Positions 3,692 to 55,739 are shown, counted from the first letter of the stretch. The stretch is DNA of 64,000 nucleotides from an uncultured Hormoscilla sp. (GCA_963921275.4 OZ001293.3:800001-864000); one strand, 5' to 3'. Program-made: numbers and translations. Notes: a model not told the origin generated them from the sequence alone.

Positions 3692-3706
3692 TTTTTCCGG
3701 AACGGT
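3692..3706 (+). repeat. 15-nt micro-insertion TTTTTCCGGAACGGT after CCGA
   Basis: Identical copies at 7359-7373, 7680-7694, 10672-10686 and 15732-15746 (- strand); variant at 22573-22587. Confidence 0.85.
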
Positions 3707-3838
3707 GGCATCACTGTAGGGTTGAGGCGGGTAATTGTCTCGATATGAAGGAAGTTGTTGCGTGCATTTCGTATTCGCGCAACAACTTCCTATCGATCGG
3801 ATATAGTTGCTCCATTACAAATAATTTACAAAAGTATT

Positions 3839-4520
3839 ATGTCGGACTTACGCTTAAATCTGGGCTGTGGTGCAAAACATCTAGAGGGCTACATCAATGT
3901 GGACAAGTTTGAAAATCCCGACATCAGATTAGACTTGGAGACATTCCCTTGGCCGTGGGAAGACAATAGTGCGATCGAAATTGAACTGTCTCACGTACTG
4001 GAACATCTCGGACAGTAGACAGAAGTCTATCTGAAAATCATCCAGGAGATATATCGGATCTGTAAAGCAGGGGCAAAGGTGCATGTGAGAGTCCCCCACC
4101 ATCGCCACGATGATTTACTCCACGATCCGACCCACGTGCGGGCAATCACTCCCTTTAGTTTGAGCATGTTTTCCCAAAAACTGAACCAAGAGTGGCAAGC
4201 AAACGGAGATGCTACTACGCCACTGGGTCTAGATCTGGGTGTTAACTTCGATTTGGTGGAGACTATCTATATCCCTAGCGAACTTTGGTACTCTCGGGAA
4301 GGCGATCGGGCTGATGATACAGATTATCTCCTGGAACAGAGTACACTGTACAATAACCGGCGTTGCACAATCACGGGATGATGGGTCTCTTTGCATAAGT
4401 CTTAAACGTATACTATAAGCCACTTTTAGTTATGTGCAAACAATGGCATCATCCCCAAAATGTGCAACGCCCAATAACCTAATCAGAGAGATGGACATGA
4501 CCCTAGTGGCAGTCAAGTAA
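3839..4520 (+). pseudogene. SAM-dependent methyltransferase-like protein with nonsense codon (TAG 4016-4018) and MITE insertion
   Basis: LNLGCG and SHVLEHL motifs; removing the MITE restores YNNLIREMDMTLVAVK*. Confidence 0.8.
4359..4471. mobile_element. 113-bp MITE
   Basis: TIRs GGCGTTGCACA / TGTGCAACGCC; 8-bp TSD CAATAACC at 4351-4358 and 4472-4479. Confidence 0.9.
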
Positions 4521-4576
4521 CAGTGGTAAGTTGTAAGTGGTCAGTTGTTAATTGTCAGTTGTGCAACAGCAATCAA

Positions 4577-4792
4577 CCGTTGCACATTTTTGAGATGATT
4601 CCATTTTTGTACAATGGAGGTCGTAAATCTGGTAAGTTTAGATTTAGCGTCGCTACCGCATTATGGTATTAGTCGGTTAAAACCGACTAATACCGAGTTA
4701 CCTGGGTACCGCCTGGTAACGCGGGGGTTTGCAACCCCCGGCGGGATGACAGCGAAGTGAGTATTCCGATCGTCCCATCATTATGCAACGCC
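4577..4792. mobile_element. Second, inverted member of the same MITE family, containing strong hairpins
   Basis: Ends CGTTGCACATTTTTGAGATGATTCC and CATCATTATGCAACGCC mirror the ends of 4359-4471. Confidence 0.6.
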
Positions 4793-4825
4793 CAACCATG
4801 AACCATGAACAATGAACCGTAAAAG

Positions 4826-6178: not shown

Positions 6179-6274
6179 GGCACCGGAGATATCCGCCAGT
6201 CGAGTTTTGGGAGGCGATCGCAAAAATGCTATAATCCACAACCTACCTTCGAACGCTAAATAAATTACTTTTTT

Positions 6275-7014: not shown

Positions 7015-7120
7015 TTTCAGGGGCGATCGGGCGGCGAGTGGTACTCTATTTTTGCGCTTGTCCCTGATTATGCTATTATAGGGGCGATCGCCTCTATGTT
7101 CGGAGAAAGGAAGGTAAATT

Positions 7121-7710
7121 ATGACGACAGCAACAAAATACGCTTGTGGACTGTAGAGGAATATCATCGGATGATCTCCAGTGGTATTCTTACCCGTGAC
7201 TCCTATGTAGAATTGTTAGAAGGTCGGATTGTAGAAATGAGCCGGAAAGGTCTACTCCATGCAGGTACTACCCAACGCGCTTCCGATTATATCAAAGCTC
7301 GATGACACGATCAAGCTCATGTCAGGATGCAATTGCCCGTTACTTTACCAACTTCCGATTTTTCCGGAACGGTACCGGAACCCGATGTGGCCGTAGTTAG
7401 GATCGATCGGGGTGCCTATGGAGATCATCATCCTACGCCAGACGAAATATTTCTGCTCGTAGAAGTCGCCGATACAACCCTAAGAATCGATCGCCTGGAG
7501 AAAGCGCCCCTCTACGCCAGGGCAAATATTCCAGAATACTGGATTTTAGATGTGAGCGATCGCCAAGCCTATATTTTCCGCGATCGAACTTCCGTTGGCT
7601 ATAGATCGTCTTTTGTTTTGCCAGATAATGCCGCTATTGCACTAAGAGCATTTCCAACAATAGAAATATCCCTATCCGATTTTTCCGGAACGGTGCTTTT
7701 TCTGCCGTAG
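7121..7710 (+). pseudogene. Uma2-family endonuclease with frameshift, TGA and two 15-nt inserts
   Basis: WTVEEYHRM, PEPDVAVV, LLVEVADTT, YARANIPEYWILD motifs. Confidence 0.85.
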
Positions 7711-8539: not shown

Positions 8540-8551
8540 TGCGAACCAATC

Positions 8552-9487: not shown

Positions 9488-9664
9488 AACGCTTTTATAT
9501 CTATAATAGAGAGTTGATGTTAGTTCTGAGATGATTGTATCATATTAACCCGAAATCTCCATGGCAAAATCAAGAAACCTGGTTTTTTGCTCATACCGGG
9601 TTAGAGGGCTACGGCGGTCAGAAACCACTGCAGCGAACGGGCCGTCTCAGTTTCTCCGGTTAGA

Positions 9665-10858
9665 GTGAGGGGAAAAACACAGATGATATTCCGACGATAC
9701 TTCCTGTTTGCCCAGCTAAGAAAACACTGGTGGGTGACTCTGCTATTGTGGATAGCGATGTTCAACCCAGCGCTAGCAGCTGCTTTAGAACTGCGAGTCG
9801 CAATAGAAGAAGAAGTCAAGCAAGTGCAAGTGGGCAGTTCCTCGGCGGCCACAGTCAAGAATAGTGCTGGGGAAACCCTCGGAGAACTGAGGGCGATGTC
9901 GGGGTTTGTCGCTCAACATCAGGATAGCACTGTTGCCCTGTCCAAATGGCAAGCTGGTCAAATTTGGATTGAACCCGCAGATAATGGTTTAGTCTGGATC
10001 GGCGATCGCTGGTATCGAGGGCGCGTCCTCCTAGTCCCCAGCGAGTCAGGACTCACTGCTGTCAACTACGTAGACATCGAACATTATCTGTACAGCGTCT
10101 TAGGAGGGGAAATGCCTCCCAGCTGGCCCCTGGAAGCCCTGAAAGCCCAAGCAGTGGCCGCCCGTTCCTACGCCTTGTATCAGCGGGGGAAAACTGCCAA
10201 TAAAATCTACGATCTCGGCGATACCACCGCTTGGCAAGTTTACCAAGGGGTCGAAGATGAATATATCAGCACCCAACAAGCCGTAAATGCCACAGCTGAT
10301 CAAGTTCTCATCCACGATGGTAAGATTATCGAAGCCGTTTTCCACTCCTCCTCAGGAGGGCACACGGAAAACGTGGAAGATATCTGGACAGCGTCCCTAC
10401 CCTATTTGCGAGCAGTCCCCGACTTCGATCAGAATGCACCCGTGTTCGAGTGGAAAAAAACCTTTTCGGGCGATATTCTCAGCAGTTTAATTAGCAGTGT
10501 AGGTAATATTTTATCCCTAACTCCAGAGCGTACCACACCTCACGGACGGATTACCACCATGAAAGTTATCGGTGATAAAGGGGAGAAAGTCGTCACTGGC
10601 AAGGAACTGCGTAAACTGCTAAGCCTGAAAAGCACTTTATTTACTATCAGTCCCCTTGGGGAAAGTGCCGATTTTTCCGGAACGGTGGATGAAAATTCAC
10701 CTCCAAGCAGTTTCCAAGTAGTCGGTCGCGGTTTCGGACATGGACTGGGCCTGTCTCAGTATGGCGCTAATGCCTTAGCTCGACGGGGATACAACTACCA
10801 GCAGATTTTACTGCATTACTATACCAAAACATCTCTTGCTCGCATTGAAGTCGAGTAA
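9665..10858 (+). CDS. SpoIID/LytB-domain protein with an in-frame 15-nt insert
   Basis: EALKAQAVAARSYA, FHSSSGGHTE, GFGHGLGLSQYGA motifs. Confidence 0.92.
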   Translation: MRGKTQMIFRRYFLFAQLRKHWWVTLLLWIAMFNPALAAALELRVAIEEEVKQVQVGSSSAATVKNSAGETLGELRAMSGFVAQHQDSTVALSKWQAGQIWIEPADNGLVWIGDRWYRGRVLLVPSESGLTAVNYVDIEHYLYSVLGGEMPPSWPLEALKAQAVAARSYALYQRGKTANKIYDLGDTTAWQVYQGVEDEYISTQQAVNATADQVLIHDGKIIEAVFHSSSGGHTENVEDIWTASLPYLRAVPDFDQNAPVFEWKKTFSGDILSSLISSVGNILSLTPERTTPHGRITTMKVIGDKGEKVVTGKELRKLLSLKSTLFTISPLGESADFSGTVDENSPPSSFQVVGRGFGHGLGLSQYGANALARRGYNYQQILLHYYTKTSLARIEVE

Positions 10859-10915
10859 TTGAGCAATTGAGCAATTGAGCAATTGAGCAATTGAAAATTG
10901 TTGAATTGAGAATTG
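10857..10915. repeat. Short tandem repeats (AATTGAGC)n, STRR-type
   Basis: Four perfect copies then decay; similar 7-mer arrays near 4520-4560, 4795-4820 and 21514-21556. Confidence 0.8.
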
Positions 10916-11594: not shown

Positions 11595-11674
11595 GATAAT
11601 GAGGGAGATTTCTGCAGAATGCTATGCAAACGGGCGCTTGACTAGCCTTTGAGACTTTTCTTTAATTATAGCCA

Positions 11675-12066: not shown

Positions 12067-12456
12067 TCAATCCAACCACTCACTGGGATCGGGTTGTTTG
12101 CGTTCCATTGCTTTGATATAATCTTTCAGCGTCCGCTTATAGTCGGCTGGCTTGGGCCGCTCAACTCGTACTCGGCCCGAATGGCCAGCCCGATTTTTCG
12201 CGCAGCGTTCGCGGGTCTTGGGAGGTTGGGGGGCCCGGGTTGGAGGAACGGTCAGGATCGACCGCAAGCGATCGCGAGCCTCATTGATTTGTCTCATTTT
12301 CTCATGAGCCTTCTGTTGCAGCCGAGGAAACTGGACAAAACGATCGGGGTGCCAGACGATCGCCAAATCCTTATAACCTTGGTGAATTTCCTCTAGGGAA
12401 GCCCCCGGTTCTAGTTCCAGGATTCTATAGTAGTGAGCTGCATCTGTCATATCCAA
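12067..12456 (-). CDS. J-domain (DnaJ-type) protein with an in-frame 15-nt insert at 12194-12208
   Basis: YYRILEL..WHPDRF..INEARDRL. Confidence 0.85.
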   Translation of the reverse strand: MDMTDAAHYYRILELEPGASLEEIHQGYKDLAIVWHPDRFVQFPRLQQKAHEKMRQINEARDRLRSILTVPPTRAPQPPKTRERCAKNRAGHSGRVRVERPKPADYKRTLKDYIKAMERKQPDPSEWLD

Positions 12457-14880: not shown

Positions 14881-15897
14881 ACGTGAGTTCGACGAAACTA
14901 GAAAATGGCAGGAGGTAGTGCTGGTAAGCCTTTGACCTCCAGAACGAGGCGAGGTTTTTTATCGGCGTCGGTGTAGGCCACCAAGCCGGCCAGCAGGTTG
15001 ACCAAGAAGTTGAAGACACTCCGGTGGCGAGAATGCTCGATTTGACAGATGTTCTTGAGTTGGTCGTTGACCGATTCAATGACGGCCCGCTTCCGGAGCT
15101 GGATTTTATCGCTCGTTTTCATCAAGCGATTTTTCATATTTCGCTTCGATTTAGCAATTTGAGACCTTGTTCGTATAATTTCTCGAATAGATATTGAGAG
15201 ACATATCCCCGGTCTCCAAACAGTTTTCCAAACAAGTCTTGAGCCATCTCTGGTACAGGTTTACGGTCGTCAGTGTTGGCTGGCGTGAGCTTGAAGGCTA
15301 GTAACTCTCCGCGCTCGTTGATAATCAAATGCAATTTAAATCCGAAATGCCAGCCAGTTGAGCTTTTCCCCCAGTGGACTAGCCCTTTGAACACCTTATG
15401 GTTATGAGCACGACGAGGGTGACAAACTTCTATGGGTGTAGAATCAACAAAGGAAATGCCTGTAACTTCTCCTTTTCGAGTATGAAGAAAACAACTTCAT
15501 AGCATTAGACACCACGGCATCAATTCCACAAAGCGATTATAGCTGACCAAGTTGGGAAAGGCTCCGCGCCAATGGGGGAGAACACACAGGGTGTAAAACT
15601 CTTTGAACGTACGGAAGCCCGAGCCATGAAAAGCGATGGCAATCGTCATAATTTCTGAGAGGCTCATGCGCGAACGACAGCATCGTTCCCCAGGCATGGA
15701 GGGCAGTTGCGGTTGTTCTTCCCAGTGGCGCACCGTTCCGGAAAAATCGAACATTTGGCAGAAGTCGTCTAGTTCACAGAAGATGCGGGTGACATCCAGG
15801 CGCGATACAATTTGACTCATGGTGGGTTCAGACTGGGGTGGAATGGTTCAAACCCAGTCTCCGCCTTTTTTTTTTGTCCAGTCCGTCGAACTCACGT
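14881..15897 (-). mobile_element. IS982-family element, transposase disrupted
   Basis: TIR ACGTGAGTTCGACG; 6-bp TSD AAGTCC; fragments [23 protein letters not shown]. Confidence 0.92.
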
Positions 15898-21513: not shown

Positions 21514-21559
21514 CATTGCTAATTGCTAATTGCTAATTGTTAATTGCTAATTGCTAACG

Positions 21560-22557: not shown

Positions 22558-23124
22558 CTAAGTTTTTCCCGAGTTTTCCCGAACGGTACAATCACAAATC
22601 AGGAGATCCATTAACATCTTAGCCGGATTGACTTTTTCGCTACGATTTTCTGCCGTTTCTCTGGTACTAGCCATCAATGCCTCTCGGGTAGTGCGACTAG
22701 CGATCCCGAGAGGCATCGAACGCAGGCGATCGCGAATATTGCCCAGTATGAATTGATTATTGACAGGTAAACGGGGTGTTGGCAGATCTAGATTAGGCCA
22801 CCAAGGCAAATTATTACAGGGACAGCACTGGGGTGGCAGGCCCGCAGTCGGGAGAGGGAGGGGGAGCTCACAACGACAACACATCACCAGTTCCCACTCC
22901 GGCGTCAACAGTTGAGTAATAGTTTCGTCAGTCCCCTCCAGGTAGCAGTCTCTGGAGTCAGGTGAGATAATTTTCTGCCAGCATGCTTCAAACTCCTGAC
23001 TATAACTATCGCCTTTTACTACTGGTTGAGGCAGCAAAGCTTCGTTCCCATTGAGAATCATCACTTTTTTGCCCAATTGTAGCCAATAGGCAAGATATTG
23101 TTTTACTTGCGTTTGAGATGCCAT
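22558..23124 (-). CDS. Conserved cyanobacterial hypothetical protein
   Basis: MASQTQVKQYLAYWLQLGK, CYLEGT, Cys-rich segment. Confidence 0.7.
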   Translation of the reverse strand: MASQTQVKQYLAYWLQLGKKVMILNGNEALLPQPVVKGDSYSQEFEACWQKIISPDSRDCYLEGTDETITQLLTPEWELVMCCRCELPLPLPTAGLPPQCCPCNNLPWWPNLDLPTPRLPVNNQFILGNIRDRLRSMPLGIASRTTREALMASTRETAENRSEKVNPAKMLMDLLICDCTVRENSGKT

Positions 23125-23205
23125 AGTATCTGAGCATTGCCTATTGCTAATATTGTAACGAGGCATCGCCGCCTTTGGGGATCGGAAACTTAAGTTAATG
23201 TAAAG

Positions 23206-23796
23206 TTATCGCTTGATCGCGTAGCGTGCGCGCTGCGCATTCGCTCCTGACAAGGGAGTGCCTAGCTCACTGAGGTTAAGGATATGACCAGCAGTAACCA
23301 GGTAAACTGGATGGGCTACCGCAGCGATGTGGCGCACTAGCGTGCTGAGGCGATCGCGAAACAGCCGACCAATAGGATAAGCTGGAACCAGGCCCCACCC
23401 TGTCTCTTCAGCCACCAAAATCACATCAGCAGCAGTCCGCTGCAAACAGGAAAGCATTGCCTGCTGGGTCTGATTCCAGCTTACATCATCCTGGTGCAAT
23501 AAATTTGCCAGCCAAGTTCCCACTGAATCGATCAATAGACAGCTATTCGCCCCATATAGCTCAATTGTGGCCGCCAACTCGATCGGCACTTCCAGAGTTT
23601 TCCAGCTGGGGGGACGCCGCCGCTGGTGCAGTACAATCCGATTATGCCACTCCCGATCCGTCGGGTCAGTAGCAGCGGTTGCCACATAGACCACCTGTTT
23701 GCCCGTACCCGTGGCCAGGGTCTCAGCCCATTCGCTCTTTCCAGACCGGGCCGGTCCTGTCACCAGGATGAATTGCCTTGCCTGAGAAGATGTCAT
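23206..23796 (-). CDS. cobU: Adenosylcobinamide kinase / phosphate guanylyltransferase
   Basis: TGPARSGKS, EETGWGLVP, GRLFRD motifs. Confidence 0.93.
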   Translation of the reverse strand: MTSSQARQFILVTGPARSGKSEWAETLATGTGKQVVYVATAATDPTDREWHNRIVLHQRRRPPSWKTLEVPIELAATIELYGANSCLLIDSVGTWLANLLHQDDVSWNQTQQAMLSCLQRTAADVILVAEETGWGLVPAYPIGRLFRDRLSTLVRHIAAVAHPVYLVTAGHILNLSELGTPLSGANAQRARYAIKR

Positions 23797-30214: not shown

Positions 30215-31581
30215 GGGTACATCTCAGTTAGGCGATGAGTAATTATACTTAGTGCTTGTCTCCCTCAAAACGGTACATAATTTAGGCACTGTTGACCACC
30301 CTTGACCCATGAACTCCCAAAAGCAGGCTGAACTCCAGCAACATCTTGACGCGATTGCCGCGATTCTCTACCAGGAAGCCGACCCCACTGAACTCACCAC
30401 CCTTGAAGGCATTGAGAAAAACGTTCGTGCGCTTGCCCAAGAACACGTCTGGCCTCAACTAGGAATTTTTTTATCAACACGGCGACTTCCCGCCGCACCG
30501 GAAAACAGCGTACCCTGACCAGTATCCTGGGCAAACTAACCCTCACCACTGCTCAAGCCCAACAACTGCAAGTTAAACCGGGAACTCGTTGGAGTCCGTA
30601 TGTGGAAAAATGTTGTTGGGTCGTCAGTGCCAATGCCTCTTACCAGAGAGCCGATTTTTCGGGCCGTCCGCGGACCGTACAAGATCTCGCGATGCTGACT
30701 GGGGTGAGCATCTCCACAGTACGCTCCAACGCTTTGTTCAACGAGAGGACTGGTCTGAGGTAGAGATAGCTGAACCGATTCAGGAGCTCAGCTTGGATGG
30801 CGGCATGATTCGCCTTCGTACCGATTTTTCGGGCCGTCCGCGGACCGTGGAGGGTCAACCTGGTGAGTGGCGAGAATACAAAGCCTTAAATGTCCATGAG
30901 CAAGGCAGTGTGGCTTTCTTCAAGGATAATCAAGGGCTGCTTGAGTGGGTGAATGCCCAGCCCCTCGGGGCGCAGTTCACCGGTCTCGGAGATGGTCATG
31001 ATGGGGTGTGGAACATTTTCAGTGGTATCGGGACACCAGAACAACGTATCGAAGTGCTCGATTGGTATCACCTAATGGAAAATGCCAATAAGGTGCAAGG
31101 GACACCGGCTCAATCCGATTTTTCGGGTCGTCCGCGGACCGTGCAGATCCGATTTTTCGGGCCGTCCGCGGACCGTGCACTCCTGTGGCGAGGGGAGACC
31201 CAGAGGGCGATTAGTTATCTGCGCCAACAGCAATGTCGGGGAGCCACAGGGTTGATCAACTACTTGAAGCACCATCAGACGCGCATCATTGACTACCAGG
31301 CTAGCCCTCCTGGCGTCGGGCCGCTGCGCGAACGGGCAGGCAGCTCGGCACTCGATTGGCTCTGGTCGGGTTGAGTCCCTGGTGAAACAAATTGGGTTAA
31401 GGGTGAAATTACCGGGGGCACAATGGCGAGCCGAGAATGTGCCGATTTTTCGGGCCGTCCGCGGACCGTAGGTGTTGAAGCATCGCTGTGCCTACCTGAA
31501 TGGCGCATTAGTTGCCTAATCAGACTCAGTAAATCCACTTTTGCTGAGTAAATATACTCATCGCCTAACTGAGATGCACCC
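30215..31581 (+). mobile_element. ISKra4-family element, decayed, with five 24-nt micro-insertions
   Basis: TIR GGGT(A/G)CATCTCAGTTAGGCGATGAGTA; 8-bp TSD GATTGCCT; LGDGHDGVWN, LDWYHL, IGSGRVES motifs. Confidence 0.9.
30655..31469 (+). repeat. Five copies of 24-nt TTTTTCGGGCCGTCCGCGGACCGT, each after CCGA
   Basis: At 30655, 30825, 31119, 31153 and 31446; the 31119 copy has one substitution. Confidence 0.92.
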
Positions 31582-39390: not shown

Positions 39391-39689
39391 TATAATACAT
39401 ATCCTGGTGTGTTAAGCTCAAATTCTATCGGACCATCCCGGCCTACGGTAGCGATCACCTCCCGCCAGTAGGTCAGCTTCGTAGTCCGGGCTCGCTGTCT
39501 CCCGACCCTTAGGAGCACAAAAGGGGAGACACCGCCCGCCTGTCAGTCGGCGATGTCTGAGGGGTGCCTGCGTTGCATCCCGATTTTTCGCGCAGCGTAG
39601 ACATCGAAAGCCGATCGCGCCAGAAGGCGGGTCAGCCATGCTTGTAGCTAGTGGAGCGGCGGTTGAACGCCATCCTTGTTGCTATACTA

Positions 39690-41411: not shown

Positions 41412-43499
41412 TCAGACAAAGTTAATTTGTAGTAAAGATAAATCATCATTTAAGGCTTCTTTAGCGCTCAAATTCTTGATGTGTTGTAACACCAGATCTA
41501 GATTATTGGTGTGGTTGGGCGGTTCGAGGACGCTCACCGCAAGTGGCTGGGATGCCAGTAAATTAGTGAAAGCATCTAGACTCCAAATGCTGCCATCAGA
41601 CTGACAAATCTCGTAAGCTCCATCGCTGAAAACATAGAGGGTGCTGTTGGCGACAATCTGACATTGATAAGAGACATATTCAGCTTCGGGGAACATACCT
41701 ACCGGAAGACCGGGAGTTTTCAGGCTTTGAACTTGGTTGTCTTTTCCCTGGTTCGGAGAAAGTAAGATGGCTGGTGGATGACCTGCGCTCACGTAAACCA
41801 GTTTGCTATCGCTCTGGTTATAGGTCGGGGTCGAGCTGGGAATCACTCCCCAACCCTCCAAGAGCGAAACCTGAAGAGCGACTGGAACCGCACACGGCTA
41901 CTGGTTGGTAAGCTGTTGTCATCAGTAGGATTACTGGGGGTTACCCCCGTTGTCCCTTACCCTTTGAAATTTTACCCCTTATGGTCAATCCTATTGGACC
42001 GTTTAAGTACTGAGCTGCGGAAGGTTCGCGGAGGATAGTTCAGCAAACCATACTCGCCGCTCTTTACTAACATCTTCCCCATTCTGCTTTCCGCTTTTCG
42101 TAAGGGCTCTGAACTTTACCTGGCTAAGATTTGAATCCAAAATTCGTACTTTCGGAATTTCTCCCTAGTTCTGTGACATTAAGGTTACTTTTCCCAAGGG
42201 TGTCTTACCATATCCGTCCTACGTCTGCATATCCACAGGCATTACCCTGGGCGTTAGCTTCTTAGGACATCCTTCTTCTTCGTGGCTTGCGCTTTACATT
42301 TAACTTGTCCAAATGGGGACAGCTCACGAGAGGTTACTTCGTTCCCTAGTATCATTTCACGATGCTTTTAGGTTCCTACTATACCCCGGGAGTTCTTTGA
42401 GTACGTTATTAGCCAGAGGCAAGAGCTAATACTAACTACCATTTCCCTTTTTGGGCAAGCGCATAAGCCTTCTTCCGCTGGTTCAGGTTAACGAGGTTTA
42501 CATAGGTTCGCTTGTTCTAACCATTAGCATCTTTCCTAGCGGCGTCACCGGCTTAGGCTGCCAGTTATCCTACATTTAAGTCCTCGGGAGGCACCACGGC
42601 GATGTGGCTCCGTAGCACCTCCGACCGGTAGTACCCTCGACCCCCGTACCTGGGGAAAGGGAATTTAACCCCCATGATAACCAGAGTTATCTGGCTGATA
42701 GAGCCAGACCCGACTTTCACCTACTGGCTTATGCCGGAACGAATCGCACTACCTCATACCAGATGGTAAAGTATTTATCGGTTTGGGTATTCATCTGAAA
42801 TTTGTCATTTAATGCAGTCAGAACCCGAGCGGGTTCTGAGAAATTGACGCCAGAAAGGGATTGCGATCGCAACACATTCAGCACCGAAACTGATAACAGG
42901 GCTGAGCCTACCCCATGACCGGCGGCGTCTACTACATAAATCACCAACTCATGGGAGTTTAACCAGTAGTAATCAAAGCAATCTCCTCTTAGCTGCCGCG
43001 AGGGGATAAACCGGGCATCGATCGTCACCTTTCCGGTTAAGGAAGAGGGCAGGAGACTGCGGACATAATCAGCAGCCTCGGCCAATTCTGCCTCCATAAT
43101 TTTCTTGGCGGTTTGCAAATCTTGGTTCAGCTGGTGCAACCGGAGTCCAGCTCTCACCTTGGCCCTTAACTCATTCATCTCCACAGGCTTAGAGAGAAAA
43201 TCATCCGCCCCCGTATCCAGTCCTTCAACCCGGTCCTCTACCCCTTCCCGGGCTGTCAACAGTACAAAAAATGTTGTCGCCAATTCCGGATCCGCTTTAA
43301 TGTGATGACAGACTTCCAGTCCATCCATGCGAGGCATCATCCAGTCACACAGGATCAGCGCCGGTCTAATTTCTCGGGCTTGTTGCAATCCCTCTTCGCC
43401 GTTGGCTGCCACCATGACATCGTATCCCTGATTTTTCAGTGATTTGGTCAGTACCAACCTAAACAGCGGATCATCTTCTATAATCAAAATTTGATACAT
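41412..43499 (-). CDS. Response regulator + PP2C/SpoIIE phosphatase (RsbU-like), exons 43499-42750 and 41822-41412, 386 aa if spliced
   Basis: REC domain, DAAGHG, SAGHPP, SDG, DDLS; splice junction FTIWYEV|YNQS is in frame. Confidence 0.85.
41823..42749 (-). mobile_element. ORF-less group II intron (927 nt), sense to the host gene, degenerate D5
   Basis: GTGCG start, CCCCGACC end; EBS1 TGCCTC pairs with exon end GAGGTA. Confidence 0.9.
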
Positions 43500-47672: not shown

Positions 47673-48271
47673 GGATTATAGCCTCGTTCCCAGGCCGAAG
47701 CCTGGGAACGTTGACCAGAGGAGATCCCGTTCGCGCAGCGTGCGCGCAGCGCAATCACGCAGGAAGATCCGGCGGTTGTGGAGTTCGCCAGTTAATTCCA
47801 GGCCTGAGACCATGACGGGATCTAGTAACAACAAGCAAAAATGTTCCCCTCTTGTCACTTAATATACATGAATTAACGTTTTAGCATGTGTATCAAATGA
47901 CACCACAAGTTCAGCCGGGACTGTTGACAACAGTTCGACCACCTCGTATATGCTCACAGCAAGTGGCAAAAAGGCGTCAGCATTGGGTCTGGCAGAACCG
48001 GCATGAGGTCATAGGAATTGCCGACCAGCCTTGTGGGACAGGTCTTGCCCCAGGTAAACGGAGCCATTTGGAATACAGGATCGGGGCGGCTATTCACCAT
48101 GGCCGATCGCGCAGCTCACACGCTACGCGATCGGCCATAGTGAATAGCTCGCCAGTTTCAGAGCCATATCCGTCGGCTCTAACAGAGACCAGTTGGAAGT
48201 AACGGGGATGAAATTAACCGTGATTACATTCGAGAGCGCGAACCACCAGATCGCCCCAGCCCACAATAAGT

Positions 48272-48287: not shown

Positions 48288-48372
48288 AAATTAGGGGACT
48301 TATCCAGCCTTGACCACTAGATGCAGGATAATCTATACTCATTACACTGACCTAAAAGGAAAAGCAGCAACT

Positions 48373-51300
48373 ATGGAGCAGCAAAAACGAAAACCCCAGA
48401 CTAACCAATTCCCACTAGACGCACCAGTTAGCCTCCCCGTGTTCTTCAGGACTTACAGCCGGCGCACAGCCGACGGCAAACGCGAATCCTGGAAAGATGT
48501 GTGCGATCGGGCGATCGCAGGTTTAACCGAGTTAGGCAAACTAACCCCGAAAGAATCAGACCTGCTCTACCGGATGCAGCTACAGCTGAAAACACTGTCT
48601 TCTGGCAGATGGTTGTGGATAGGAGGTACAGGTGCGATTCGTTCAGGCGTAAACCGGTAACGGAGAAAGCCTGACTGGCATCATTAGCCAGAAACTCTGG
48701 ATATCATGGGGGTTAAATTCCCTCTCCCCAGGTGTGGGGGTAACACCGGTCCTTAGTGCTGCGGAGTCACATCGCCGTGGTGCGGAGCTAGGACTTAAAT
48801 GTAGGGTAGCTGGCAGCCTAAGCTGGCAACACCGCTAGGAAAGATGTTCATGGTTAGAACAAGCGAACCTGTGTAAGCCTCGTCACCTATAACCAGCGGA
48901 ATAAGGCTGATACGCTGGCCCAAAAGGGAAATGGTAGTTAGTGTTGGTAATCTGTACTTACTAGCATCGCACTCGAAGAACTCCCGGGGTATAGCAGGAA
49001 CCTAAAAGCATCGAGAAATGATACCAGGGAACGAAGTAACCTCTTGTGTGCAGTTCGGCTCAACGGGGCCGAACCAGTTAGATGTAAAGCGCAAGCCACG
49101 AGGGGAAGGATGTCCTAAGAAGCAAATGCCCGGGGTAATGCCCGTGGATAAGCTGACGTCGGACGGATATGGTAAGAAGCCTTTGGTGAAAGTAGCCCTA
49201 ATATGTCGCAAAACTTAGGAGAAATCCAAAAGTATGAATATGGACTAGAGTCTCAGCCGGGTAAAGTTCAGAGCCCCGATAAATCAGGAATGGGGAAATG
49301 TTAGTAAAGAGCGGTTAGACCGGTTTGCTGAACTACCCTCCGCGAACCTTCCGGAGCTGAAATCATTAACGGTCCAATAGGATTGACCATAAGGGGTAAA
49401 ATTACAGAGGGTAAGGGGGAAACGGGGTGACCTAATAACCCTACTGATGACAACAGCTTACCAACCAGTAGCCGGATGCGGTGAAAGTCGCAAGTCCGGT
49501 TTCGAAAGGGAGGGTTGGGAAGTGATTCCCAGCTCGACCCCGACCAGTGGATTAAGCAACCTGAAAATTTTCCTGGTGCTTATAATTGTTCATCAACTAA
49601 TATCCTTGACTGGCGATCGTTTGGTTTGTTAATGGATTTGGCCATGATGGGTTGTGGGACTGGTGCGGTTCTCGAACCCCGCTACATCAATCAACTACCA
49701 CCCATTCGCAATCACCTGAAGGTGAAACTTTGGGGCAAAATTGGCGCAACTTCACCAGCAATGCGACGGGAAGAAACTGAGGTGAAAATATCCGGGAACA
49801 AGGTAATAATTTACGTCGGCGACTCTCGCCAAGATTGGGTAGCTTCCTATCAATCTCTGTTAGAATTATCCACTGAAGAGCGATTTACCGACTCAGTGGA
49901 GGTTGATATTGATTTGAGTGATGTTCGCCCAGCTGGGGAACATCTCAAAGGCTTTGGTGGTGTAGCAAATCCAGTGAAATTACCAGTTCTGTATCAACGC
50001 TGTGCAGGGATATTAAATAAAGCTGTCGGACGGCAATTAAATTCCGTGGAATGCAGTTTGTTGATTGATGAAGCAGCCGTGACGATCGTGGCAGGCAATA
50101 TTAGGCGCAGCGCGGGGATTCGTCAATTTGCCTTTGATGATGAATTGGGTGGCAATGCTAAGAATAATCTCTGGCAACAAGATGAAAATGGTAACTGGCG
50201 CATAGACCCCGATCGGGATGCCTTGCGGATGGCAAATCATACCCGGATATTCCACCACAAGCCAACCTTAGAAGAATGTATTGCAGCAGTTCGCAAGCAG
50301 TATTATAGCGGCGAAGGGGCAATTCAATGGGCTGGAGAAGCGATCGCCCGTGCCAATGCAGATCTGCTCAGCAGTTACGAACATAAAACTGACTTTTTAG
50401 CTGCCTACGATCGTGGCGAAGGCGAACAATGGTTGCAGGAAAAATACCCGCAGCTATCGGATGAAGAACGACAGCATCGTTTAGCCCGACTTGGATTAAA
50501 CCCGTGCTTGAGCGACGATACTTGGATTCTTACGGAAAACGGTGCTCAAAAAATCAAAGACTTGTTAGGTAAGCAAGTTGGACTATTTGTTAATGGGGAG
50601 TTATTTTCGACCACAAAGGAAGGATTTTACCAGACTGGTGTTAAGCTTCTTTATCGTTTAACCACAAAGGAAGGTTACGAAATCCGAGCCACTGACAACC
50701 ATCCATTCCTTAAAATTACCGCCCAAACGCAGAAAAAACAATACAGCGAATGGACAGAGCTTAAGGACTTGTCAGTGGGCGACCGTGTTTCTATCCACAA
50801 TCATAAGGGCATTCAACCCTGGTACGGTGACGGAACTTTTGGTGAAGGATGGCTGCTCGGCAGTCTTGTTGGCGATGGCTGTTTTTCGGTCAACGAAAAA
50901 AATTACCAACGAGCGGCTGTACTTCGTTACTGGGGAGGCAATCAAGCTCAAATGGCTGATTATGCAGTGGCGCTTATTGGAAAGGAGCTTGGTTCACAAC
51001 TTGCTTCTATTGCTCTCCCACGCAACCAGTACACCCAAGTGGGAGGGGCGGCGTTGTATGAGCTGGCGGAGCGGTTTGGGATGAAGCAACGTCACAAAAC
51101 TGTGACGGATGCAGTTGAACGAGCGAGCTACGATTTCTATCGTGGCTTTTTGCAGGGCTTCTTCGACGCTGATGGTGGCGTGCAAGGTTGTCAACTAACG
51201 GGAGTCTCTGTCCGCTTAGCTCAAAGCGATCTGGATGTGTTAAAGGCTGTTCAACGAATGTTATTGCGGCTAGGTGTTGCTTCAAGTCTTTATCGGTGCC

Positions 51301-52697
51301 GCCGCCCCGTATCCCTGCGGGACGCGCAGGGCATACACCGGGTTTTACTGCCCGATGGTAAGGGTGGGCAGAAACTTTATGACTGCAAAGAGCAGCACGA
51401 ACTGATTGTTGCTCGCACCAATCTTAAGGAGTTTCACGCGGTTGTCGGATTCAGCGACCCCGACAAAAAGGCAAAACTTGACGCTGCACTGTCAGGCTAC
51501 AAACGTCGATTAAACTGCGAGGGTTTCACTGTGACGGTCTCCAGTATTGAGTTTGACGAAATTGAGCCTGTTTACGATTGTACTGTCCCTGGGGTGTCTC
51601 GTTTTGATGCCAATGGGTTTGTTGTTCACAATTGCGGTGAAATCATCGGGGCGAATTTTTTCTGTAATTTGTCAGAGATTCACCTGAATCAAATTGACCC
51701 GCATAACTACCAGGAACAGGCTGACGCTTTCACCGCTGGGGCCCTTTCGGTGGCGACGCTGCTGAATCATAAATTTGTTGAACCTCGCTACCGGGACAGT
51801 CGGGAATTAGACCCAATTGTGGGCGTGTCTTTCACAGGACTGTTTGATTTCTTTGTTAATGCTTTTGGGGTTGATTGGTTACACTGGTGGGCAGAAGGAC
51901 GCCCTCAAACTGCAGGCGGTTTGGAGTATAAGCAGCGGGAGATAGAATATCTGAGTCGCTGGAAAGAGATCGTACATCGGGTGGTGTGGGATTATTGCGA
52001 TCGCCATTCCTTAAAATGCCCAAATCGCTGTACAACCTGTCAGCCTTCTGGCACGAAATCTCTACTCACAGGCGCTTCCCCAGGATGGCATCCCCCTAAA
52101 GCCCAACGCTTTATTCGGCGGGTTACATTTGCCAAAAACGACCCCGTAGCGCTAGCTTGTATTGACTATGGTTATAATGTGGTTCCTTCTCAGTCAGATA
52201 AAGACGAAAATGGCAATCTTTTGCATGACCCATTTTCTCCCCTGTGCAGTGAATGGCTAGTAGAAATACCTGTGGCTGTACCTTGGGCTGATTTGCCCGG
52301 GGCTGATGCAATTGACATTGCTAAATTTAGTGCGATCGCTCAAATGGATTTCTACTTGACGGTGCAGCGTTACTGGACTACTCACAATTCTTCTGCCACC
52401 ATTGAACTGCGGGAAAACGAAATCGAAGCTTTAGGGACTCGCATCTATGAGGCGATCGCCCTTGATGAAGGATACATCTCAGCTGCCCTGCTAGCGAGGT
52501 TTGACGACCATCAGAGTTTCCCGCGCTTGCCATTTGAGCCCATTGACAAGCAGCAGTATGATAAGCTGATGAAAGAAGTCCAGATGCGACGCCAGTCAGA
52601 TGATTTTCAGGCGGCTTTGAGTCGCTATGATTCAGGCTACGCAGCAGTTGGCCCCGCCGGGTGTGACTCGGATAAATGTCTGTTTCCGCGCCCTTAG
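48373..52697 (+). CDS. nrdJ: Adenosylcobalamin-dependent ribonucleotide reductase, exons 48373-48631 and 49546-52697, 1136-aa precursor including intein
   Basis: VFFRTYSR, SGRWLWIGGT-E-W junction, NP|CGEI, QPSGTKS, C-terminal CDSDKC. Confidence 0.95.
48632..49545 (+). mobile_element. ORF-less group II intron (914 nt) in nrdJ
   Basis: GTGCG start, ACC end; EBS1 CTGTAC pairs with IBS1 GTACAG and EBS2 CCTAT with ATAGG; canonical D5. Confidence 0.95.
50505..51632 (+). mobile_element. 376-aa intein with LAGLIDADG homing endonuclease
   Basis: CLSDDT start, VHN|C end; LGSLVGDG and QGFFDADG motifs; inserted in NP^CGE. Confidence 0.95.
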
Positions 52698-52858
52698 GCG
52701 ATCGTATGAAGGTTCGTAGTAAGGACTAAAGTCCTTGCGCGAGGAAAGCACGCTTCGATGCGCGAGGGGTAGTGCGATGGCGCTACGCTGGGCGCGCAGC
52801 GCATGTAGCGCTCCCCGAGTGCATCAAAGTGCTTACTACAAACTAAGGAGACAGGAAA

Positions 52859-53137
52859 ATGTTTATGGATGAACTGATGCCGATTTTCAAAGAATTAACC
52901 AAGCAGCCGTTCGCCTTTTTGGGCGGCTTTTGCTCTGGGATCCTCGGGCTTTCTCTCTATGAAGACCCACTCTCTAGCTGGCTCGCAAAGCAGGTGGGTG
53001 CTGAGTCGGATGCTTCTTCTGCTAAGGCAGGCAACAGCACCGGCCGATGGCGCTACGCTGGGCGCGCTGCGCAATCGCGTAGCGTGCGCGCTGCGCAATC
53101 GCGCAGCGTGGCGCAGCCATGTGCCGATTTCGATTGA
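52859..53137 (+). CDS. Conserved cyanobacterial small protein; C-terminus shifted by stacked micro-repeats
   Basis: MFMDEL..QPFAFLGGF; PISIE* lies in another frame after the repeats. Confidence 0.65.
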   Translation: MFMDELMPIFKELTKQPFAFLGGFCSGILGLSLYEDPLSSWLAKQVGAESDASSAKAGNSTGRWRYAGRAAQSRSVRAAQSRSVAQPCADFD

Positions 53138-53252
53138 ATAAGAAAAGCCTAGCTAGGCCGGCTAAGAGAGATAGTCTCCAGCCAGATAGCTAGGCCGTCA
53201 AAATGTCCAAAAATCAATCAACCTTTTCATTCTATCACAAGTTCATCTGGTC

Positions 53253-54323
53253 TTAGGGATAAAAACATAATTGGGGTAGGCCTAAAGTTTCTTCCCAACC
53301 CATCATCAAGTTGAGGCATTGAATGGCTTGACCAGCTTGACCCTTGATCAAGTTATCGATCGCTGAGAGGACGATCGCCCGATCGGTGCGGGAGTCCACT
53401 TCGACGCCTATATAACAAAGGTTAGTGCCATAAGCCCATTTAGTCTGGGGATAGACCCCACTAGGCAACACCTTTACCCAGGGACAAGCCCGATAGAAGG
53501 CTGAGTAAATTGTAATCAAATCTTCTCGCTTCAGCCCTGGATCGTTCAGATTGCCATAGACTGTGGCTAAAATCCCCCGTACCATCGGGATCAGGTGGGG
53601 GGTGAATTGAACCATTACCTCATGGCCAGCCAGATCGCTACAGACTTGCTCAATTTCTGGAGTATGCCGGTGATGTGCGACCCCGTAGGCTCCCAAGGAA
53701 CTATCCGCTTCCGCTAGTAAGAGATGGGTTTTAGTTTGTCTCCCGCCGCCAGAGGTGCCCGATTTGGCATCGACGATCGCTGTCTCTGGTACAATTAAAC
53801 CTTGCTTGAATAGTGGTGCGAGTGCTAGCATGCTGGCCGTGGGATAGCAACCGGGACAGCCTACTAATGAAGCTTGAGCGATCCGATCGCGATACAATTC
53901 CGGTAAGCCGTAAACCGCCGTAGCTGCTACTTCATCGTCAGTGCGATCGCCTCCATACCAAGCTTTATAGACTTGCAAATCTGTTAACCGGTAGTCAGCT
54001 GAGAGGTCGAGAACCTTACACCCCTTTTCTAACAGTGTCGGTGCCATCTTATAGGCCAGACCATTGGGTAGACCCAGAAAAACTACTTGGCATTTGCCAG
54101 CAATTATGTTAATGTCTATGGGTTCGACCTTCATCTGGACACAATGACCTAGATGAGGATAAAGAGTACCATAGTATTTACCAGCGCTGCTGTCACCTCC
54201 TAAATAAACCAGTTCTACCCCTGGATGATCCACCAGCAGTCGCACGAGTTGCACACCACCATAGCCTGATGCGCCGACAATCCCAACTTTTATTCGATTT
54301 TTCGCGCAACGTTCTCCTATCAT
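53253..54323 (-). CDS. argC: N-acetyl-gamma-glutamyl-phosphate reductase with 15-nt insert at 54298-54312
   Basis: [24 protein letters not shown] motifs. Confidence 0.96.
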
Positions 54324-54494
54324 GCTTTACCATGAATAAATTACTTGAAACTCAAACGGTTTAACGTTTGATGCATTCTAGTACTAAAGGCGGAATTTGG
54401 CTGTGAGACGCCTCGAAAAACAAGGGACAATTTATAAAGCCCTAGCAGTTAACTGATATAGTGGGCAATGCCCACCCGACGTGGTTGTGTCTTC

Positions 54495-55739
54495 ATGTAC
54501 GCAGAATCTGGAGAGTTTAAGTTTGATTCGATCGACTCAGCCCTGTCAGAACTAAAAGCGGGTCGGGCGATCGTGGTCGTGGATGACGAGAACCGGGAAA
54601 ACGAAGGGGATGCGATCTGCGCGGCCCAGTTCGCAACGCCGGACATGATTAATTTTATGGCAGTGCATGCCCGGGGGCTGATTTGTTTGGCCATGACGGG
54701 CGATCGCCTGGATGAACTGGACCTCCCCCTGATGGTCAACGACAACAGCGAAACTCGCAGCGTGGGGGCGAAAAATCGGAATCAAACGGCTTTTACGGTC
54801 AGCATCGACGCCGATACAGGGGTGACTACGGGAATTTCCGCTGAAGACAGGGCCCGGACGATCCAAGTGGCCCTTAACCCAGCTACCCGTCCTCAAGACT
54901 TGCGCCGTCCCGGTCATGTTTTCCCTCTGCGAGCAAGAGTTGGTGGCGTCTTAAAACGCGCTGGTCACACAGAAGCCGCAGTTGACCTGGCCAGACTCGC
55001 TGGACTCTACCAGGCGGGGGTAATTTGTGAAATTCAAAACCCTGACGGTTCAATGGCCCGCTTACCCCAACTAATAGACTATGTCCAAAAACACGGGCTG
55101 AAAATTATTTCTATTGCCGACTTAATCAGTTACCGACTGCAACACGAACGGTTTGTTCGCCGGGAGACGGTCACCAATTTTCCCAGTCAGTTCGGTTACT
55201 TCCAGATTTATGCTTACCACAACACCCTGGATAATGGCGGTCACCTGGCCATTGTTAAAGGAGATCCAGCGGAGTTCCCAGACCAAATGGTGATGGTGCG
55301 GATGCATTCGGAATGCCTGACTGGTGATGCTTTGGGGTCTCTGCGCTGCGACTGTGGTTTGCAGCTGCAAGCTGCGCTGAAAATGATCGAAAATGCGGCC
55401 CTGGGATGCGTAGTGTACCTGCGTCAGGAAGGTCGGGGCATTGGTTTAATTAATAAGCTCAAAGCCTACTCTTTACAAGATATCGGACTAGATACAGTAG
55501 AAGCAAATACTCGCCTGGGTTTTCCCCCTGACCTGCGGAATTACGGCGTGGGTGCGCAGATCCTTAATGATTTGGGTGTGAAAAAGTTCCGCCTAATTAC
55601 GAATAATCCCCGCAAGATTGCTGGTTTGAAGGGCTATGGTTTAGAAATTGTCGATCGAGTGCCGTTGTTGATTGAGGCGACTGAGTACAATTCCAGTTAT
55701 CTGGCAACTAAGGCGCGAAAGCTGGGTCATTTCTTGTGA
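54495..55739 (+). CDS. ribBA: DHBP synthase / GTP cyclohydrolase II with 24-nt insert at 54752-54775
   Basis: RENEGD, RAGHTEA, HSECLTGD, RCDC, EGRGIG motifs. Confidence 0.95.
   Translation: MYAESGEFKFDSIDSALSELKAGRAIVVVDDENRENEGDAICAAQFATPDMINFMAVHARGLICLAMTGDRLDELDLPLMVNDNSETRSVGAKNRNQTAFTVSIDADTGVTTGISAEDRARTIQVALNPATRPQDLRRPGHVFPLRARVGGVLKRAGHTEAAVDLARLAGLYQAGVICEIQNPDGSMARLPQLIDYVQKHGLKIISIADLISYRLQHERFVRRETVTNFPSQFGYFQIYAYHNTLDNGGHLAIVKGDPAEFPDQMVMVRMHSECLTGDALGSLRCDCGLQLQAALKMIENAALGCVVYLRQEGRGIGLINKLKAYSLQDIGLDTVEANTRLGFPPDLRNYGVGAQILNDLGVKKFRLITNNPRKIAGLKGYGLEIVDRVPLLIEATEYNSSYLATKARKLGHFL

Follow-up and report, generated by a model that had tools for sequence, protein, structure and literature searches.

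Hairpin-bearing snippets of 15 or 24 nt, identified in a 64,000-nucleotide stretch of Hormoscilla DNA (the window), rank with the smallest mobile DNA known from bacteria and lie even inside essential genes. They form one family of four sequence types, A to D, which share a constant head and an insertion rule and differ in their payload, and the copies are very probably real mobile mini-repeats. Our explanation as a whole, to which we give slightly less than an even chance, is that they are non-autonomous, ultra-small mobile elements of the SDR/REP-hairpin kind, which would be inserted by a trans-acting HUH-like enzyme. An earlier note on the same DNA had described a single family with a shared rule, a variable payload and in-frame insertions, smaller than the repeats known from Nostoc; this description stands. 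The templated mechanism attached to it gained no support.

Copies in the window and their target sites

The window was searched with the bare inserts, leaving the preceding CGA out of the pattern. All 15 copies listed in the earlier note were recovered at the coordinates it had given, 14 as exact matches and one as a variant, well above chance expectation; about 10 of the 15 are 15 nt long and about five are 24 nt long. The string CGATTTTTC occurs 15 times in the window, and 14 of these occurrences are the elements described here; the remaining one, at 15127, looks unrelated to them.

Type A, TTTTTCCGGAACGGT, is present in five exact copies and in a decayed sixth with two mismatches (GTTTTCCCGAACGGT); it occurs 0.16 times on average in the shuffled window, and six copies were reached in none of 100 shuffles. 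The first copy (3692..3706, + strand) is intergenic, following tatCCGA, preceding a G and lying 15 nt beyond the stop of an inositol-1-phosphate synthase-like ORF (2532-3677). Two copies share a Uma2-family ORF, at 7359..7373 (+) and, near its C-terminus, at 7680..7694 (+), and both are read as D-F-S-G-T-V. The fourth (10672..10686, +) falls in a SpoIID/LytB gene, the fifth (15732..15746, -) follows gttCGA in an IS982-family transposase fragment (ORF 15497-15820, -), and the decayed copy (22573..22587, +) follows cCCGA at the 3' end of an ORF without family match (22558-23166, -).

Type B, TTTTTCGCGCARCGT, has three copies, all on the + strand, a number reached in one of 100 shuffles. The copy at 12194..12208, TTTTTCGCGCAGCGT, follows cCCGA, precedes TCGCGG and lies in a DnaJ-domain ORF on the - strand, where it is read as E-R-C-A-K-N; that at 39584..39598 follows cCCGA and precedes an A, with no ORF of at least 80 aa across the site; and the variant TTTTTCGCGCAACGT (54298..54312) follows tTCGA in the fourth codon of argC (-). 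The 24-mer of type C, TTTTTCGGGCCGTCCGCGGACCGT, occurs five times on the + strand within 30655-31469, against an expectation of zero. Two of its copies (30655..30678 and 30825..30848, the latter read as DFSGRPRTV) lie in a broken ISKra4-family transposase gene; a third (31119..31142) carries a single C-to-T change that leaves the stem with a G.T wobble; the fourth (31153..31176) stands 10 nt after it, at a second CCGA; and the fifth (31446..31469) is directly beyond the stop of the broken transposase ORF. Type D, TTTTTCGCCCCCACGCTGCGAGTT, has a single site in the window, at 54752..54775 on the - strand, following tTCCGA within ribBA (+).

As the earlier note had stated, every copy in the window follows CCGA (13 of 15) or TCGA (two of 15), and their contexts contain neither terminal inverted repeats nor target duplication; orientation with respect to the asymmetric target is constant in all 15. 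Removal of the inserts at 12194 and 54752 yields CCGATCGC, the empty site foreseen for both, and at these two HIP1-like sites the cut separates base 4 of the octamer from base 5. Across 67 unique sites the consensus is ttCCGA^RS: positions -4 and -3 are each C in 60 sites, +1 is a purine in 64 and +2 is G or C in 58. In the fetched loci, the pattern used for searching imposed the G at -2 and the A at -1; both were free in the window, where bare inserts were used. Types A and C follow ttCCGA^RS, and the window sites of types B and D are CGA^TC in three of four cases, the fourth (39584) preceding A. The shared targeting rule proposed earlier holds as one rule across the family, but CCGA is strong rather than absolute: in other Hormoscilla genomes, C occupies -3 in 57 of 64 type A copies. 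One B-like copy in those genomes, 19 nt long, follows GGGA.

Anatomy, coding compatibility and clustering

All four types present a common layout, consisting of a TTTTTC head, one small GC hairpin that differs by type and a final T. Both in the window and around the fetched loci the head invariably has five Ts; no T4 or T6 heads were found. Types A and B have predicted stems of 3 bp, at about -1.5 to -2.0 kcal/mol; stems are 3-4 bp across types A, B and D (-1.5 to -2.6 kcal/mol), with variants too few for covariation, and the predicted fold of type C reaches -7.2 kcal/mol. Lengths are multiples of three in all four types, and none of them has a stop in any of the six frames, the joint chance of such stop-freeness being about 0.018 by shuffling and 0.0017 with window k-mers. 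The earlier claims of a variable payload and of inserts that keep the frame are borne out, as is the assignment of the four types to one family.

The constant head and the near-constant tail (SSGT) could also be read as the two ends of a larger CCGA-targeting element that was excised and left a few bases of each end behind, and the absence of target duplication would fit such footprints. We consider this origin very improbable, as no longer element starting with CGATTTTTC and ending in ...CGT was seen in the window, letter identity would be needed at 60 or more sites at least, and nested growth at one site (in ArgC, described below) is unlike the behaviour of a footprint. In types A, C and D, moreover, the payload always comes with the head; that of type B, CGCGCAGCGT, occurs four more times without it, inside other GC-rich repeats.

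Genic copies are probably translated as five or eight extra residues and tolerated. Inserts occur in the essential genes argC and ribBA, that of ribBA within a conserved stretch of the RibB domain, and bypassed hairpin inserts exist in yeast mitochondria; removal before or during translation, through a tiny intron or ribosome bypassing, would leave the proteins unchanged. Such removal strikes us as extremely unlikely: it needs neither multiples of three nor stop-free frames, and all four types have both; insertions occur in both orientations relative to genes, which a signal acting on RNA would not tolerate; and we saw no take-off and landing codons that match. Of 69 sites, at least 25 lie within ORFs; in the 25 judged coding under a strict rule, the element runs with the host gene in 14 and against it in 11, a roughly even split. 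An apparent preference for reading frame (16 of 21 in two frames) is indistinguishable from the phase of target sites left unoccupied (42 of 70, P = 0.21), and frame usage therefore offers no independent evidence of peptide selection.

Copies of a type lie close together. The five type C copies span 791 bp, and a span as short came up in none of 200,000 random samplings of target sites; the six of type A lie within 18.9 kb (P about 0.01). Strands, which in IS200/IS605-type transposition would be biased towards the lagging-strand template, are distributed 13 + to 2 - in the window, or 9 to 2 if the type C cluster is taken as one (P = 0.065), and are about equal on the GM7 contigs; GC skew across the window was uninformative. 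The window contains no close inverted pairs, its nearest opposite-strand pair (54298/54752) being 440 bp apart and of different types. Strong clustering of each type, the re-use or remodelling of the same sites in sister strains (ArgC, RibBA) and the four headless type B payloads would all suit a process without transposition, in which template switching or short-patch gene conversion copies sequence locally with CCGA microhomology as the seed. We regard this as unlikely, since a four-base homology at one border, with no homology at the second, cannot produce identical borders at 67 unrelated sites, identical copies reside on different contigs and in four species, and flanks are dissimilar, with just one alike pair across 62 loci.

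Empty sites and allelic states

Alignment with orthologues, which had been set beforehand as a check, revealed clean empty sites in close relatives. Judged by these alignments, all four types are true insertions, with the predicted empty site found in close orthologues or paralogues of SpoIID for type A, ArgC for type B, the ISKra4-like transposase for type C and RibBA for type D. At the SpoIID site the window reads SA-DFSGTV-DEN, an insert common to the SP5/SP12, GM7 and GM102 proteins and to P0536, and P0122, P0123 and P0125 (about 91% identical) are empty (SAE|DEN). Residues of the orthologues, such as the E of the empty SpoIID allele, fix the borders of the element. This site, at 10672, was on the list of the earlier note, but without a restored protein text.

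RibBA reads NS-ETRSVGAKN-RNQ in the window; the insert is absent in 10 of 10 orthologues, and the alignment gap against PDB 4i14 comprises exactly the eight inserted residues. Eight of the 10 members of the RibBA cluster are empty, and GUM202 carries type B where the window has type D. ArgC is empty in P0518 and P0519, and at the first Uma2 site (7359), where removal gives TSEPEPD, five of five plasmid homologues contain SEPEPD. Removal of the insert restores the protein text put forward in the earlier note for RibBA (NSD|RNQ), ArgC (MGD|RIKVG) and this Uma2 site (SEPEPD). The homologue alignment at the second Uma2 site (7680) is consistent with insertion but weak (35-40% identity), and the Uma2 gene has an in-frame stop upstream. 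In the IS982 ORF, for which the earlier note gave FERH as the restored text, the NCBIfam model matches only downstream of the insert at 15732. For type C, the copy at 30655 is present in a 97%-identical fragment (P0365) and absent in more distant homologues, that at 30825 is shared with P0365 but lacking in P0362 (84% identical), in P0364 and in others, and that at 31119 is absent from P0361, P0363 and P0364. The copy at 31153 is an independent hit on the second CCGA, because removing it together with 31119 restores the homologue length.

Among the matches listed in a scan of other genomes, type A has at least 64 copies, spread over the genomes of four Hormoscilla species that stem from different assemblies, and is therefore not an assembly artefact; no Nostoc genomes are among the 106 type A matches listed. 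An error of assembly or polishing receives next to no credence from us: the same SpoIID codon is filled in Illumina-only MAGs, in a PacBio MAG (GM7) and in the 6.88-Mb contig of the window, and strains show structured allele differences. Hormoscilla is a sponge-symbiont cyanobacterium.

The ArgC site presents five allelic states, nested insertions included, with four other occupied states in sister strains. At the protein level these alleles run from HAGKN through H-DPGPLRC-AGKN to a 35-residue form; the first two both occur in proteins with identical ArgC cores, and four proteins with identical cores differ in a nested 7-residue piece. Occupied sites are thus able, again at the protein level in ArgC, to receive further nested insertions. 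Going by such sequence comparisons, the insertion system looks active, given the five ArgC states, the nested piece and the presence of type B in place of type D in RibBA.

Candidate enzymology and relation to known repeats

Under the explanation that we prefer, insertion would take place on single-stranded DNA through an enzyme encoded elsewhere in the genome. The favoured candidate is a tyrosine nuclease-transferase of the HUH type, like those of the IS200/IS605 and REP/RAYT systems, which would cut after the fixed tetranucleotide at the target and at the left border of the element, and after SSGT at the right border. We favour this model because a fixed word on the 5' side, no duplication, no inverted repeats and a hairpin are the signature of IS608-type transposition, a single-strand HUH process that inserts 3' of a fixed short word, without duplication or inverted repeats, in dependence on a hairpin. 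Taken by itself, HUH-like enzymology is a possible but doubtful component. Against it stand the single hairpin of each element, very weak in types A and B, the lack of enrichment of target sites in hairpin loops (23 of 77 occupied vs 49 of 138 unoccupied CCGARS, P = 0.45), and the lack of a Y1 or other HUH transposase, RAYT included, among the window ORFs scanned against Pfam; the R-then-S preference downstream also has no counterpart in the IS608 model. We know of no element as small as 15 nt that moves by the HUH route.

The elements resemble IS200/IS605 in that they insert 3' of a fixed word of four or five nucleotides, always the same way round and with neither duplication nor inverted repeats, and in hairpin dependence, which is predicted here. 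IS200/IS605 elements require a hairpin at each end and measure at least about 100 nt even in miniature derivatives, whereas those of Hormoscilla have one hairpin, 15-24 nt and a purine after the site; to our knowledge, IS200/IS605 place no requirement on the base after the target.

The main rival of the HUH model is RNA-templated insertion. A nicked ...CCGA 3' end would pair with the 3'-terminal UCGG of a small RNA that reads A-hairpin-GAAAAA-UCGG. The genome encodes many reverse transcriptases, one of which would copy this RNA once, and the cDNA end would be joined to downstream DNA, in a telomerase-like or target-primed manner by which each copy, with its CCGA, regenerates the template. This scheme accounts for the strict CCGA beside the constant head, the single orientation, the absence of duplication and the type-specific payloads; group II introns contribute a minimum of two reverse transcriptase ORFs to the window, one of them with an HNH nuclease, and more copies of introns are present there; and on the opposite strand an element is a hairpin plus A5, like an oligo-adenylated RNA end. 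We nevertheless rate it as improbable. Slippage on a homopolymer ought to vary the T-run, which is constant in length; copies truncated at the 5' end are missing; the close grouping of each type better suits a cis-acting DNA process than a diffusible RNA; and we know of no group II intron proteins that act on such templates. The templated mechanism of the earlier note gained no support, as neither a template locus distinct from ordinary copies nor a link to a reverse transcriptase or nuclease was found.

A bolder reading, which we hold to have a small chance, is that at 15 nt these are smaller than any other site-specific mobile element known from bacteria, spread by undescribed enzymology, active today and produced by the same process as the Nostoc repeats. 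Such short inserts might arise by one round of templated addition by a resident reverse transcriptase, primed on a nicked ...CCGA end pairing with the template, much like the alignment-plus-template mode of telomerase; or they might arise by oligonucleotide strand transfer, through a nuclease reading only CCGA and the TTTTTC head, in which case any small hairpin could be payload. The family would be active today, on this reading, because identical ArgC cores differ in insert state, and the Nostoc and Hormoscilla repeats would come from one still unsolved process.

The small dispersed repeats (SDRs) of Nostoc are the closest known kind, from which the Hormoscilla family is set apart by length, target and host range as given in secondary descriptions. 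SDR1-8 were reportedly described by Elhai et al. in 2008 from Nostoc punctiforme and relatives, with lengths of 21-27 nt; we know of no enzyme for either SDRs or the Hormoscilla elements. Both groups are very short dispersed repeats of HIP1-rich cyanobacteria, with precise insertion into a fixed short word and presence or absence between relatives; a hairpin is predicted for both, but in types A, B and D with stems of just 3-4 bp; the ArgC nesting matches, at the protein level, the SDR trait of insertion into earlier copies. The Hormoscilla elements differ in their constant TTTTTC head, in the many copies in frame in genes and in their length of 15 or 24 nt, which bears out the earlier claim that they are smaller than SDRs, as far as the described SDR range goes. 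The four element sequences have no match in the literature searched, a body of texts with the original SDR paper outside it. SDR5 measures 21 nt (PMC13756078) and sits between the third and fourth bases of GCGATCGC, HIP1 (PMC4390886), whereas the Hormoscilla elements insert at CCGA^R or in the middle of CGA^TCG. SDRs are reported only in Nostocaceae (PMC5861425), and Hormoscilla, a member of the Gomontiellaceae (PMC7313196), falls outside that family.

REPs are imperfect palindromes of 20-40 bp with a GTAG or CGTC tag (PMC3733652), are mobilised, like REPINs, by RAYT transposases (IS200/IS605-like Y1 HUH enzymes) and are mostly extragenic, often as inverted doublets beside a RAYT gene (PMC3116915, PMC3733652), some lying in frame inside genes (PMC3733652). 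Like the Hormoscilla elements, they are short non-autonomous repeats that form a hairpin and have one unpaired terminal tag, and both presumably move as single strands and leave the target unduplicated. The Hormoscilla elements differ in their tag (TTTTTC), total length (15-24 nt) and stems down to 3 bp, and in being single, frequently within ORFs and without a RAYT gene among the window ORFs. Rickettsia palindromic elements (RPEs), roughly 100-150 bp long, are likewise selfish palindromic repeats of a host-restricted bacterium, inserted into protein-coding genes without breaking the frame and presumably translated; they differ in having no CCGA rule and no T5 head. Their tag is CGTC (PMC3733652).

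Inserted copies and their empty sites

Searching the window for the inserts alone, in a pattern that did not include CGA, retrieved five exact copies and one two-mismatch variant of the 15-nt type A (TTTTTCCGGAACGGT), three copies of the 15-nt type B (TTTTTCGCGCARCGT), five copies of the type C 24-mer, all inside 30655-31469, and a single copy of the type D 24-mer, compared with means of 0.16, 0.25, 0 and 0, respectively, in dinucleotide-preserving shuffles. These are exactly the 15 copies claimed in the earlier note, and its rule that each follows CCGA or TCGA holds for all of them (13/15 and 2/15, respectively). The contexts of the window copies likewise confirmed its statement that terminal inverted repeats and target duplications are absent. 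The string CGATTTTTC occurs 15 times in the window and belongs to a family element in 14 of these instances, the remaining one, at 15127, appearing unrelated. In the window and in the flanks of the loci fetched from other genomes, the payloads of types A, C and D were found only behind the constant TTTTTC head; the type B payload, CGCGCAGCGT, was also found four times within other GC-rich repeats. No master or parent locus is visible within the window.

The earlier note had further proposed that clean removal of the inserts restores plausible protein text. Alignment of homologues bore this out at sites of all four types, the predicted empty site being present in a close relative in each case (^ marks the junction below). 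In ribBA, all ten aligned orthologues, one of them 97% identical, lack the eight residues contributed by type D and read NSD^RNQ, the exact product of clean removal and the very text that had been claimed, and the solved structure of M. tuberculosis RibBA shows a gap at exactly these eight residues. An AlphaFold model of RibBA (11-row alignment) had a mean pLDDT of 32.9 and was unusable. The window RibBA (54468-55739; 423 aa, ending in ...GHFL) is without the C-terminal domain of about 140 residues seen in other cyanobacterial orthologues (550-570 aa), a truncation common to all ten members of the Hormoscilla cluster.

For type A, three related SpoIID proteins of about 91% identity (P0122, P0123 and P0125) read SAE^DE(N/D) where the window protein reads SA-DFSGTV-DEN, and the insert is shared by proteins of four other Hormoscilla MAGs. 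Because the empty allele has glutamate, the borders of the element are fixed to the base, with the cut after CCGA and T as both first and last base. In the Uma2-family gene, all five plasmid homologues read SEPEPD where removal of type A predicts it, in agreement with the proposed TSEPEPD. This gene (7090-7710), host of two type A copies, is probably a pseudogene, because its sequence has an in-frame stop between the N-terminal third and the remainder. Two Stanieria plasmid homologues of Uma2 (loci L107 and L110) carry an unrelated in-frame insert of 36 nt with a small hairpin (TCCCG...CGGGA) before SEPEPD, a few codons from the insertion point of the window; inserts of this tiny, in-frame hairpin sort may occur more widely among cyanobacteria. 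Synteny with locus L030 of strain SP12 was discarded as a route to an empty type A site, since homology stops 88 bp before the element.

For type B, the short N-terminus of ArgC is found in 119 of the 120 homologues among the matches listed, and empty alleles reading MGD^RIKVG, where MIGDRIKVG had been put forward, occur within the same 90% cluster as the window protein. Type C resides in a broken ISKra4-family transposase gene, and its inserts are absent from homologues of 83-86% identity; a 97%-identical fragment has two of them. The neighbouring type C copies at 31119 and 31153 are two independent insertions, each at its own CCGA word. Tandem duplication was ruled out as the origin of this pair by length comparison, because removing both copies leaves text equal in length to that of the homologues.

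Target word and element anatomy

Over 67 unique sites, the flanks of type A follow the pattern t-t-C-C-G-A, element, R-S, with C at -4 and at -3 in 60 sites each (mostly T in the exceptions at -3), a purine at +1 in 64 and G or C at +2 in 58. The window, with a G+C content of 48% and 37 HIP1 octamers, contains 87 unoccupied CCGA[AG][CG] words compared with 13 occupied CCGA words. Types B and D together have four sites in the window, and at three of these the element is followed by TC, so that the empty sites of these three copies hold CGATC; removing the inserts confirmed that two of the empty sites are CCGATCGC, as had been claimed.

All types share one build, in which the TTTTTC head leads into a GC-rich stem-loop and a final T. 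The stem-loop is CCG-GAA-CGG in type A, CGC-GCA-GCG in type B and CGGGCCG-TCCG-CGGACCG in type C, the last with a predicted energy of -7.2 kcal/mol; the predicted stems of types A, B and D are weak (-1.5 to -2.6 kcal/mol). The T run is always five, and no T4 or T6 heads were found in the window or in the locus flanks. None of the four types contains a stop codon in any of the six frames; the probability that this holds for all four by chance is about 0.018 when estimated by shuffling and 0.0017 from window k-mers.

Of 21 coding copies, 16 are read in one of two frames (DFSGTV, TVPEKS). Selection for one reading frame was rejected as the cause: unoccupied target sites are equally phased (42/70, P = 0.21), and the bias therefore stems from the target and not from peptide selection. 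At the 25 of 69 sites called coding, the element runs in the direction of the host gene in 14 cases and against it in 11, a roughly even split. Hairpin-loop targeting, an idea first prompted by the sites at 3692 and 39584, was also rejected, as predicted loops contain 23 of the 77 occupied sites versus 49 of the 138 unoccupied CCGARS sites (P = 0.45), with similar mean folding energies for occupied and unoccupied sites.

Distribution, clustering and strain variation

Species-representative genomes were scanned with a 17-base stretch of type A, which matched at least 106 loci. At least 62 loci, with at least 64 type A copies, lie in four species-level Hormoscilla MAGs obtained with different technologies, and the proteins of the window map to a 6.88-Mb contig; together, these results exclude the assembly artefact that the earlier note had considered. 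Among the matches listed, unrelated taxa account for 36 single matches, approximately the chance expectation, and Methanoregula for at least eight loci (10 copies). The latter were rejected as family members, since they belong to a different, longer repeat with no CGA in front. In this repeat (loci L018, L036, L048, L049, L058, L063, L066 and L085), the type A 17-mer lies inside a longer conserved unit laid out as ...AAAATCGATCAGC + 17-mer + TTTTGATCGCGATC..., and the match is probably a chance one multiplied by the repeat family.

Other family members in the flanks of the Hormoscilla loci are copies of type C, a variant of that type with its two mismatched stem bases swapped, type A point variants and one B-like copy of 19 nt after GGGA. 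A single pair (L046/L068) among the 62 loci listed represents a site common to two species. Among the matches listed, contigs of strain GM7 hold several type A pairs within 1-5 kb; the evidence for clustering comes from the window. There, all five type C copies fit within 791 bp, and 200,000 random draws of target sites never gave so short a span; the type A copies, six in number, extend over 18.9 kb (P about 0.01). The strand split of 13 to 2 is only suggestive when the type C cluster is counted once.

Five states of the argC site were observed among Hormoscilla strains (empty; HAGKN; H-DPGPLRC-AGKN; a 35-residue form; and RCAKN, in the window), and four ArgC proteins of identical core differ, at the protein level, by the seven residues of the nested piece. 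At the ribBA site, eight of ten cluster members have no insert, whereas GUM202 has type B and the window type D. The two genes are divergently transcribed neighbours (53253-55739), and argC codon 4 and ribBA codon 95, about 450 bp apart and both with the empty site CGA^TC, are the most strain-variable sites. The element family is real and non-random, and strain polymorphism and nesting, as read from sequence, are signs that it is biologically active.

Possible mechanism and other repeats

At the level of sequence, these comparisons demonstrate that insertion is precise and oriented, follows a fixed four-base word and duplicates nothing, that exchangeable payloads are combined with a constant head, and that copies cluster locally, nest and are polymorphic between strains. 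These features would be the signature of HUH single-strand transfer, and we tentatively rank first a process in which an HUH-type enzyme would transfer the element as a single strand, as in IS200/IS605 and REP/RAYT. The lone, weak hairpin, the base requirement after the site and the lack of such a gene in view argue against this model: no HUH transposase is present in the window, which does contain reverse transcriptases of group II introns, several DDE transposases and one intein. The main rival, RNA-templated addition primed on the CCGA end, would neatly account for the rule joining word and head but fits poorly with the invariant T5 and with the clustering, and we regard it as unlikely, behind HUH-type transfer. 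Gene conversion, excision footprints, RNA-level removal and artefact rank lower still.

The closest described kind of element is the Nostoc small dispersed repeat (SDR), which is likewise tiny, carries a predicted hairpin, nests and inserts at a fixed word, and which is also without a known mechanism. SDR5 is reported to be 21 nt long (PMC13756078) and to interrupt HIP1 after its third base, ahead of the fourth (PMC4390886), and Nostocaceae are the only reported hosts of SDRs (PMC5861425). By these descriptions, the Hormoscilla family is a variant of a kind of element that is already known but whose mechanism is unsolved, set apart by its shorter length, its different target and head and its occurrence in Gomontiellaceae. 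REP/REPIN sequences and Rickettsia RPE, as described, have the theme of an in-frame selfish hairpin in common with it but differ in tag, size and arrangement (PMC3733652, PMC3116915). None of the four element strings was found in the literature searched, and the main text of the Hormoscilla genome papers does not mention such repeats.

To our knowledge, very small cyanobacterial mobile repeats have been without a mechanism since 2008. The question is easier to test here, given a strong four-base target, unambiguous borders, payloads that can be exchanged behind a constant head, alleles that are empty, filled or nested in strains otherwise identical at the locus, and several independent assemblies to compare. 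Such elements are not restricted to Nostocaceae, and in an obligate symbiont they can riddle essential genes (argC, ribBA) with in-frame extra residues, which bears on annotation, protein comparisons and strain typing. The enzyme, if found, would be a natural tool for writing a defined 15-24 nt at a word of 4-6 nt without duplication.

A second family of GC-rich mini-insertions, of about 26-27 nt, was observed at 1798-1826, 23216-23239, 36188-36220, 47727-47753, 53062-53121, 57421-57443 and 62435-62467, with the core CG[CT]AGCGTG[CG]GC and the form (C)GTCCGCGTAGCGTGCGCG..GCGCAT. It is nearer in size to the Nostoc SDRs than types A-D are, and has the module CGCGCAGCGT in common with type B. When six copies of an ORF-less group II intron were aligned, two contained this mini-insertion and the other four lacked it at the same spot. 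This intron, of about 850-900 nt, has six copies in the window, two of them in tandem (1404-2274, 24936-25804, 25807-26675, 41814-42749, 48702-49545 and 62018-62931), and two more introns (26718-28288 and 36971-38590) each have an ORF for a reverse transcriptase/maturase, which in one of them includes an HNH domain. The B12-dependent ribonucleotide reductase gene (48310-52697) is split by a group II intron and also contains a LAGLIDADG intein, and the response regulator-SpoIIE phosphatase gene (41412-43499) is split by a group II intron copy. Short tandem arrays beside gene ends (10857-10902 and 21515-21557), built of AATTGAGC-like and ATTGCTA units, resemble the short tandemly repeated sequences of cyanobacteria.
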